Virus record (IMG/VR): IMGVR_UViG_3300013383_000248
Length of the DNA: 64,000 nt
Strand: one strand, 5' to 3'
Source: a virus
In this document: positions 52,444 through 53,626 of the stretch, one piece after another
Layout: the number at the start of each line of letters is the position of its first letter
How positions within the stretch are numbered: position 1 is the first letter of the stretch
Notes under the pieces: model-generated
The model's database searches: none
Told to the model about the DNA's origin: nothing
Seen by the model: only the letters and a program-made list of their open reading frames with translations
Translations under genes and position numbers: made by a program

Positions 52444-53626
52444 CGTATACTCTGACTATTTCTTACGGACTTTGTAGTGAAAGTGGTAAATTTTCTCGTC
52501 CGCACACCATTTCCAACAACGTGTCAATAGTTGTTGTACTCCAAGTCTAACCTTGGATAGTCGATACAATAGATTAAAAATAAAGTTATTTTTTCCTTAA
52601 AGGATAATTTAAATTATCTTTTTTATGAGAGCGGCCAGTATTTATATTGGTTACTGTAGATCTTGATTTATTATATTTTTTAGCAATTTCATTTTGAGTT
52701 AAATTAGTATTTAATAAATCATTAATAATTTTATTAACCCAAATTTCATTAGCTTTTTTGTTACATCCTTTTATATATAAAGGATAAGTTTCATTTTTAT
52801 CAAAAAAATATCTACCACTATTAATACCAGAAATAAAACCAATACTTTTAATATTAAAATCTTTTGCTATTGTTTTATAAATTTCTCCAGACTTTATTCT
52901 ATCTTTAATTTGTTTTATTTCTTCTTTAGAGAAATGGCTTCTATTTATTTCTTTTTTTAAAGGATAATCAAATAAAGGATTTTTAAAATTTAACCCGCTA
53001 TTAATATTTATAAGATATGAATACTTTAAACGTGGAGAATATTTTTTTAAAATTTCATTAAAATCTTTATTGGCTATTAATAAATTCTGTATATTAATAA
53101 TTTCATTTCCAGTAAATAGTTTTGAAGATTGTAATTTTTCTTTATAAGTTTTTTCCTTCGGAGAAAATCCTTGTCCTCCTTGAGAAACATTATATCCATT
53201 TAAAGAAATTAAACTTTGATATTGTTCTATATAATATTTTTCTTTATCATCTATATAATTTTGGTCTTTACTATCATCAATTTCTTCTAATATAATAAAA
53301 TCAAAATTATTTAATCCATATTTTCTAATAGCATTATGGAATGGTATATTATAATCATTTGATTTAGGATTAAAAGAACAACTTTTATGTCCATTTTTTC
53401 TTTTTTGGATATTATTTGTTTGACCAATATAAATCTTCCCATTTATTTTATTTTCGTATTTATATATATATTTCATTTTTGCACCTCCTTATAATCTATT
53501 TCTACTTTTAATCTATCACGAGATTTTACCCTCGTTAGCAATTAATTTTATAATACTACCAATATTATAATGTAAATTAATTACCCCTATGACGAATAGG
53601 TTAAGTGTGTAAGCCCCAATCTCTCA
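52444..53626 (-). mobile_element. group I intron (~1183 nt) in dnaE carrying a GIY-YIG homing endonuclease gene
   Basis: Exon 1 ends ...AGCCU (53627) and pairs with intron GGGCU (P1, U.G at the splice site). The intron ends in a G at 52444. Splicing gives GYAFS-L-NHSLPYSF, collinear with E. coli GYGFNKSHSAAYAL. Intron flanks are GC-rich and structured; the homing endonuclease gene has its own AAGGAGG RBS. Confidence 0.7.
52586..53476 (-). CDS. GIY-YIG homing endonuclease (296 aa), intron-encoded
   Basis: Tracked ORF: MKYIYKYENKINGKIYIGQTNNIQKRKNGHKS.... C-terminal NUMOD/HTH-like repeats. No TAG codons. Confidence 0.85.
   Translation of the reverse strand: MKYIYKYENKINGKIYIGQTNNIQKRKNGHKSCSFNPKSNDYNIPFHNAIRKYGLNNFDFIILEEIDDSKDQNYIDDKEKYYIEQYQSLISLNGYNVSQGGQGFSPKEKTYKEKLQSSKLFTGNEIINIQNLLIANKDFNEILKKYSPRLKYSYLININSGLNFKNPLFDYPLKKEINRSHFSKEEIKQIKDRIKSGEIYKTIAKDFNIKSIGFISGINSGRYFFDKNETYPLYIKGCNKKANEIWVNKIINDLLNTNLTQNEIAKKYNKSRSTVTNINTGRSHKKDNLNYPLRKK

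Follow-up and report, generated by a model that had tools for sequence, protein, structure and literature searches.

A probable group I intron with a GIY-YIG endonuclease gene interrupts dnaE in a viral genome fragment

Does a GIY-YIG endonuclease gene that lies between two pieces of a phage DNA polymerase gene separate two proteins, or is it carried by an intron inside one? The question is raised by the minus strand of a stretch of viral DNA of 64,000 nucleotides (nt) (IMG/VR record IMGVR_UViG_3300013383_000248; 'the window', meaning the whole stretch), where dnaE was called as an open reading frame (ORF) of 860 amino acids (aa) (56169..53587; PHP, NTPase and fingers domains) and a second of 507 aa (52505..50982; helix-hairpin-helix, HhH), with a 296-aa GIY-YIG ORF placed between them. 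We consider the 1183-nt insert in dnaE (53626..52444) to be, very probably, a group I intron of the phage IA2 lineage, mobile and self-splicing, a reading based on sequence comparison and covariation. Phage group I introns that encode GIY-YIG homing endonucleases are a well-known kind of element. Read in this way, two 'DnaE fragments' and an intervening 'hypothetical protein' become one gene plus a mobile intron, and the same re-annotation would apply to dozens of viral contigs and to several GenBank phages whose polymerase appears in pieces.

The interrupted dnaE gene and its uninterrupted alleles

Pfam assigned the PHP, Pol III alpha NTPase and fingers domains to exon 1 and HHH_6 to exon 2, and the domain order (PHP, palm/NTPase, fingers, HhH) matches that of solved enzymes and identifies a DnaE-type Pol III alpha. 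Exon 1 ends with GGA UAU GCU UUU AGC CU (last base U53627) and exon 2 starts with U AAU CAC UCA CUC CCU UAU (first base U52443); joined in frame they give a 1334-aa DnaE reading ...GYAFSLNHSLPYSFVAIQM... (GYAFS-L-NHSLPY) at the junction. Neither exon has an in-frame stop and neither contains TAG. The spliced protein aligns without a gap over the junction to Pol III alpha of Thermus aquaticus (NYGFNKSHAAAYSLLSYQ; PDB 3E0D/2HPI), and the same segment also matches E. coli alpha, the insertion point being the conserved fingers motif GY(G/A)F..(K/N)SH. An earlier note on this DNA had placed a split inside this motif, with U53627 and G52444 at the junction, and had proposed aligning the spliced product with homologs; the placement proved exact to the nucleotide and the alignments agree with it.

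Uninterrupted alleles were found by searching viral contigs with the junction-spanning protein. In six IMG/VR contigs (L126–L131; 91–97% aa identity) the 294 query residues are encoded by a single unbroken stretch of 882 nt, and the junction DNA of all six, written out, is collinear with the predicted spliced sequence. When their DNA is aligned with the window, matches run to 53629–53636 and resume at 52443–52421, leaving a gap of 3 to 25 nt in the target; a one-base T/T ambiguity at the boundary was settled by requiring G as the last intron base. The boundaries of the insert are exact, and it is polymorphic for presence and absence. Over the 50 nt surrounding the site, divergence from the intron-less alleles is 32–34%, versus ~10% gene-wide, with identical amino acids; as many mismatches were reached by 2/3950 windows of the gene in two comparisons and by 48 and 71 of ~3950 in the other two, and the region ranks among the most divergent dnaE windows. 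Such local divergence is the footprint expected of guide-sequence constraints and co-conversion. Among GenBank phages, megablast with the dnaE region gave no match, and distant blastn with the intron had matches in part of the endonuclease gene only.

A free-standing endonuclease gene could also split dnaE into halves that are translated separately and assemble without RNA splicing. Polymerase genes split by endonuclease inserts are described from metagenomes (PMC2677866), a precedent for such an arrangement, and the exon-2 ORF can be lengthened to reach an in-frame GTG at 52505. This GTG, however, sits in P3'/P8 of the structure described below, has no good Shine-Dalgarno sequence (SD) and is not conserved; it is the only candidate start, and where the earlier note saw no start codon or ribosome-binding site for exon 2, none is conserved. 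Relatives have an in-frame stop immediately before the 3' splice site. The interruption comes in the middle of an unbroken conserved motif, there are no intein halves, and the ~290 nt of noncoding flanks show sequence conservation and RNA helix covariation for which a nuclease gene standing alone would have no use. We regard separately translated halves as very improbable. Inteins, group II introns and transposons are other known interrupters of replication genes, although nothing specific in the data favours any of them or an IStron here: the exons and the insert are not in one frame, and stops occur in every frame outside the insert's own ORF, excluding an intein, and neither a reverse transcriptase, an Rfam group II hit nor a transposase was found. 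Insertions of these kinds merit hardly any credence, and a group I intron is the explanation followed below.

Predicted intron structure and its covariation

The elements of the predicted intron are listed in Table 1. From the 5' end their order is P1, P3, UAA, hairpin A, long hairpin B, (C)UAA and P4. In the P4-P5-P6 domain, P4 (5 bp) and P6 (11 bp) were found and the P5 stem is replaced by the GGUAAAAU loop. The conserved core junctions J6/7-P7 and J8/7-P7' are present (UGUAUCGACUAU and UAAGAAAUAGUC, checked against the Rfam consensus and Twort orf142-I2). P7.1 and P7.2 both occur between P7 and P3', a pair of hairpins described as characteristic of IA2 (PMC4227781), and two other IA2 traits are absent: a P2 separating P1 from P3, and a P9 extended into P9.0/9.1/9.2. 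The P1 pairing proposed in the earlier note (AGCCU/GGGCU, with U.G at the splice site) was borne out, with a loop of 10 nt in place of the 9-nt spacing given there. The same note described the flanks of the endonuclease ORF as GC-rich and structured. At 30% (5') and 37% (3') GC they are GC-rich relative to the ORF (20%) and not in absolute terms (window mean 30%), and structure is indicated by covariation and not by folding energy.

Table 1 Features of the interrupted dnaE gene, the predicted intron and a second intron in the window
Feature	Coordinates	Strand	Details
dnaE exon 1	53627..56169	-	847 codons + 2 nt; PHP, palm/NTPase and finger domains
dnaE exon 2	50982..52443	-	remaining fingers, HhH and C-terminal domains; stop codon included
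Predicted group I intron, IA2-like	52444..53626	-	1183 nt; first base U53626, last base G52444 (omega-G)
P1	53612..53631	-	AGCCU 53631..53627 / GGGCU 53616..53612; 10-nt loop; U53627.G53616 at 5' splice site
P10 guide strand GAUUG	53617..53621	-	pairs with exon-2 start UAAUC 52443..52439
P3 5' strand CACACU	53604..53609	-	2 nt past P1; no intervening P2
Hairpin A, CCUAU-UCGUC-AUAGG	53586..53600	-	extra element from P3 to J3/4; three pairs with compensatory changes
Hairpin B	53538..53584	-	long extra element; apical loop UGGUA 53561..53557 complementary to P8a loop
J3/4 (UAA) and P4 (ACGAG/CUCGU)	53518..53537	-	8-nt A-rich cap loop GGUAAAAU; no P5 stem
P6 5' strand AUAGAUUAAAA	53506..53516	-	3' strand 52579..52569; 11 bp; endonuclease ORF in loop
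GIY-YIG homing endonuclease gene (predicted)	52586..53476	-	296 aa; SD AAGGAGG 53490..53484, 7 nt before ATG
P7 5' strand GACUAU	52557..52562	-	after invariant J6/7 UGUAUC; matches P7 of Rfam consensus and Twort I2
P7.1, AGUA linker, P7.2	52514..52556	-	P7.1 52556..52541; P7.2 52536..52514; IA2 hallmark between P7 and P3'
P3 3' strand GGUGUG	52503..52508	-	between GAAAU junction and P8; position as P3' in Twort I2
P8 (CGGAC/GUCCG) and inner stem P8a	52466..52502	-	loop UACCA 52488..52484, can kiss hairpin-B loop
J8/7 (UAAGAA), P7 3' strand and tail	52444..52465	-	P7 3' strand AUAGUC 52459..52454; 10-nt tail AGAGUAUACG, ends omega-G52444; no P9 hairpin
Second intron of same family	61444..62455	-	1012 nt; splits DnaG-like primase at IIFEG|EKST

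Related introns were recruited with a pattern drawn from the P7-P7.1-P7.2 block of this sequence and of Enterococcus phage EF1, which recovers >120 viral contigs. Half-profiles of the resulting family hit the window at this intron (5' half, E=3e-14; 3' half, E=1e-18) and in one other place only. Within the family, a dnaE subfamily of 16 introns (the window plus 15 viral contigs) shares the same dnaE motif, a loop of ~1 kb and the invariant block CUAACGAGGGUAAAAUCUCGUG; 11 of these introns are inserted exactly at the position seen here, four lie two nt downstream and one six nt upstream. Covariation was scored on a 16-sequence ORF-less core alignment, with the structure written from the window sequence. 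Pairing was retained in 88% of cells, versus 71% in shuffles (0/500 reached 88%) and 36–45% when partners were slid, and both sides have changed in 51/81 pairs. P3 is 100% paired (16/16) in three versions, including CAAGCU/AGCUUG and CACGCU/AGCGUG, as are P7.1 (5/5 pairs compensated) and P7.2 (5/7); values for P8, P8a and hairpin B are 99%, 89% and 95%, the last with both-side changes in 9/11 pairs. P4, P7 and the junctions show no variation, a 22-nt J3/4-P4 block is identical in 16/16 subfamily members, and P6 also keeps its pairing in the subfamily through compensatory changes.

The non-canonical position of P3 received separate attention. A longest-complementary-stretch test did no better than mismatched-partner controls in this AT-rich RNA and was replaced by a position-anchored test, in which a helix of at least 5 bp was found in 70/92 family members versus 13% with mismatched partners; more than 40 distinct sequence pairs make up P3 across these 92. 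An alternative reading, with the GCUAACG...hairpin as P3 beside J3/4, was dropped; hairpin B itself is strongly supported.

The splice-site helices change together with the exons. Seven versions of P1 were collected (AGCCU/GGGCU, AGCGU/GCGCU, AGCAU/GUGCU, ACGCGU/GCGCGU, UGCGU/GCGCA, ACAGGU/GCCUGU and GGGUU/GACCC), all of them retaining U.G at the splice site; versions of P10 follow exon 2 (UAAUC/GAUUG, UAUUC/GAAUG, CACA/UGUG), and all 16 subfamily introns end in G. The loops of hairpin B and P8a also co-vary, UGGUA/UACCA in the window corresponding to UUGGCA/UGCCAA, UGACA/UGUCA, UGGUAA/UUACCA, UUGGUAGU/ACUACCAA and AGCCA/UGGCU in relatives, a co-variation read sequence by sequence, the contact being only 47% paired in the automatic alignment. 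This co-varying contact suggests that hairpin B takes the part played by P2 elsewhere. The order P1-P3-hairpin A-hairpin B recurs in the second intron of the window and in a related, distinct intron in L126.

Several observations weigh against assignment to group I, or against activity of this copy. An Rfam search of the whole window at gathering threshold returned no group I or group II hit, RF00028 (Intron_gpI) gave no hit on 52300..53750 even at E<=10, and on eight loci with ORF-less family members its only match was an unrelated intron in L084. The 5' element order is non-canonical (P3 right behind P1, two hairpins before J3/4), the P5 stem is gone, with an 8-nt loop in its place, and this copy alone of the subfamily is missing the P9 hairpin, making its splicing efficiency uncertain. 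The folding energy of the flanks is unremarkable (z = -2.1 and -0.95) and is insufficient by itself; the evidence for flank structure is comparative. Membership of the family is partly circular for the 3' half, from which the recruiting pattern was taken; the 5' half, P3, P1 and P10 were outside that pattern. As a side observation, the unrelated L084 intron (2677..2906, minus strand), itself group I, scored 47.9 bits against RF00028 (gathering threshold 50 bits), and the family intron in the same locus scored nothing.

The earlier note had proposed the Intron_gpI search, and had named lack of a group I core (P3–P7) together with independent translation signals for both DnaE halves as the outcome that would point to a split gene. 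The search was negative, which taken alone is half of that outcome; the P3–P7 core is present and is backed by covariation over homologous introns. By eye, likeness to the RF00028 consensus is found in J8/7-P7' (AAGAUAUAGUC), in P7 (AGACUA) and in the J3/4-P4...J5/4-P4' motifs, and the RF00028 miss reflects the model, not the definition of the class.

The same deviations could mean that the insert is a group I intron by descent that has lost self-splicing, dnaE being a pseudogene or its splicing dependent on a cofactor, and the phage using another polymerase. Absence of P5, the 10-nt 3' tail that lacks the short P9 hairpin common to the rest of the subfamily (15 members), and the silence of Rfam would all fit such a loss. 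P9, on the other hand, is peripheral in group I introns, both dnaE exons are open, and nothing is missing from P1, P10 or the terminal G. In relatives such as EF1 and L042 the sequence at P4 is CGRGG-AA-P5 hairpin-(C/U)AAU-CYCGUG, and in the dnaE subfamily it is CGAGGG-UAAAAU-CUCGUG; relatives carry the P5 hairpin at exactly that point, and in the subfamily the stem has been deleted. The P5-less core is nevertheless invariant over all 16 members, while their helices are compensated and their endonucleases (295–307 aa) have diverged to 43–61% identity yet remain intact, which argues for long-term selection on the RNA, and we infer that the reduced core works. Loss of self-splicing is an unlikely explanation, left with some weight mainly on account of the missing P9 hairpin, and an active intron is preferred. 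The P5-less block CUAACGAGGGUAAAAUCUCGUG was also seen outside the 16-sequence alignment, in L008, L034, L062, L076 and L086; in L008 and L034 the loop ORF is another one, of 94 aa, and the flanking exon sequence also differs, so that P5 deletion may extend beyond dnaE.

It is possible, though we put it forward only tentatively, that the family is an undescribed architectural variant of IA2, without P2, with a two-hairpin domain that kisses the P8 loop and, in the dnaE subfamily, with P5 naturally deleted although the intron is maintained in an essential gene of diverged phages. The literature searches made gave no description of dnaE introns, those of the SPbeta-like phages included, of P5-less group I introns or of this 5' organisation. 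If these introns splice, they provide a natural P5-less group I core that is invisible to the Rfam model used in most surveys. A phage family of >120 introns missed by RF00028 would imply that surveys based on this model undercount phage introns. The family also offers natural experiments on the core: loss of P5, a P2-like domain in a new place, and loop-loop pairing with P8.

Known relatives, insertion sites and the putative endonuclease

Orf142 of Staphylococcus phage Twort (AF132670, annotated with group I introns) was recovered by similarity search, and the sequence of its intron I2 was read. This experimentally validated and crystallised group IA2 intron (the 'Twort ribozyme', PDB 1Y0Q) has a 3' half with the same order and junctions as the dnaE intron: J6/7-CGACUAU(P7)-P7.1-AGUA-P7.2-GAAAU-P3'-P8-J8/7-AUAGUC(P7'). 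The family 5' profile matches the P4-P5 region of a Twort intron (E=4e-6); the 3' profile had no nhmmer hit to Twort, and the 3' resemblance consists of element order and junction motifs as read. The 5' halves differ, Twort having P1-P2-J2/3-P3-J3/4-P4, a P5 stem and an extended P9, whereas the dnaE intron has no P2, P5 or P9 and carries two hairpins after P3. I2 also differs in having no ORF and another host gene. The td intron of phage T4 is a phage group IA2 intron that encodes the GIY-YIG endonuclease I-TevI in its P6 loop, behind a separate ribosome-binding site. The dnaE intron is similar in being an IA2-like phage intron in a gene of DNA metabolism with a homologous catalytic domain, and differs from td in host gene (thymidylate synthase), core sequence and the C-terminal half of the endonuclease.

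The closest GenBank polymerases are those of SPbeta-like phages (Enterococcus EF1/EF5, Staphylococcus phage SPbeta-like and Enterocloster CB457P1/P2), which belong to the same polymerase family (32–38% aa identity). Several are split in two or three pieces by inserts with HNH, GIY-YIG-like or I-HmuI-like ORFs, and the GenBank records label the pieces as separate polymerase coding sequences, with one 'Phage intron' note. The second insert of EF1, with boundaries set by an uninterrupted relative (VRE9_4, 97% identical), is a homologue from this intron family and also encodes a homologous endonuclease. Its insertion point is 13 nt farther upstream (following GGGU in Gly-Tyr), both P5 and P9 are retained, and its ORF is shorter. 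Blocks common to the EF1 and window introns are GCUAACG, GUAUCGACUAU, the UAUUGAYACG loop, AUAGUCAG and the terminal ACG.

Insertions fall at four staggered positions within a single 15-nt stretch of the GYxF..SH motif: -13 (EF1), -6 (L101, L048), 0 (the window and ten contigs) and +2 (L018, L066, L080, L090). The staggered introns carry homologous GIY-YIG genes, each with a guide sequence fitted to its own site. A second recurrent site, ...RAELP|DIDIDLAP at ~aa 466, which we take to be the palm catalytic Asp motif, is used in EF1 (locus L001, 1896..2741; HNH ORF), in Staphylococcus phage SPbeta-like and the Enterocloster phages (loci L003, L004 and L005), and in two close relatives of the window, L126 (~495..1666) and L131. 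L126 and L131 have a ~1.17-kb group I intron at DIDID and none at GYxF..SH, and the window has the reverse. Four staggered sites plus a second hot spot form a compact system for following how GIY-YIG target sites are switched.

From its sequence, the 296-aa protein is predicted to be a GIY-YIG endonuclease of the I-TevI type, and its catalytic residues are intact. It matches Pfam GIY-YIG (PF01541, E=6e-11) and the I-TevI catalytic domain (1MK0/1LN0, E=4e-6), with the Tyr, Tyr, Arg, Glu and Asn residues aligned and its R, E and N opposite I-TevI R27, E75 and N90; PHROG 7168 'homing endonuclease' matches over its full length (E=8e-38). Its assignment in the earlier note as a GIY-YIG endonuclease with its own SD is upheld by the Pfam match and by the SD given in Table 1. 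The C-terminal half showed no match to the I-TevI DNA-binding domain and, in Pfam, only sub-threshold helix-turn-helix matches at residues 182–209 and 249–288. The ORF contains no TAG.

Taking the steps of established group I intron chemistry, the guide sequence of the pre-mRNA would form P1 with the last bases of exon 1 (U53627.G53616) and P10 with the first bases of exon 2. A core built on the P3/P7 pseudoknot, with P4, P6, P8 and P7.1/P7.2, would bind an exogenous guanosine, which would attack after U53627; terminal G52444 would next take the guanosine's site, and the exon-1 3'-OH would join U52443, restoring the 1334-aa DnaE. The endonuclease would be translated from its own SD in the P6 loop and, in a mixed infection, would be expected to cut an intron-less dnaE near the insertion site; repair of the break would then carry the intron, along with short stretches of exon, over to the cleaved allele (homing). 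Junction sequences of the L127–L130 alleles (L127 type ...GCGTTTTCATTAAATCATAGTCTACC...) are candidate substrates for this predicted cleavage.

A second intron and TAG codons in the window

Another intron of the same family was identified in a DnaG-like primase gene of the window (Table 1), interrupting what we read as the Toprim motif, with U62456 as the last base of exon 1 and G61443 as the first of exon 2. Its elements are P1 (GGGU/GCCC), P3 (CCACU/AGUGG), hairpins A and B, P4 with P5, P7.1, P7.2, P8 and P9. Pairs of family introns within a few kb, as in the window, were also seen in L019, L027, L082, L092, L093 and L119. The GIY-YIG ORF of the primase intron (~62330..61569) contains three in-frame TAG codons and no other stops. 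Its interpretation as a decayed gene was rejected, all the in-frame stops being TAG, which is apparently sense in this phage; it is intact only if TAG is so read.

The phage represented in the window appears to read TAG as sense. On the plus strand, stop-to-stop ORFs of at least 150 aa cover 8.7 kb with the standard code versus 40.7 kb with TAG read through, and the read-through ORFs lie one directly after another between 113 and 44195, with others scattered on the minus strand; TGA read-through gave no comparable gain in the window. One read-through ORF (17484..27206) encodes 3241 aa and includes 116 in-frame TAGs. Matches to the terminase large subunit (2647..4407, 15 TAGs; PHROG 2) and the portal protein (4871..6565, eight TAGs; PHROG 2739, E=2e-73) span the TAG positions. 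A tRNA search of the window found no tRNA gene, hence no suppressor tRNA. A region named by its motifs as an NrdD-like anaerobic ribonucleotide reductase (47718..49841, minus strand) is called as two ORFs in the same frame (48612..49628 and 47715..48608) split by TAG (…FN-TAG-GV…), and with TAG read through it is a single 708-aa ORF with two TAGs.

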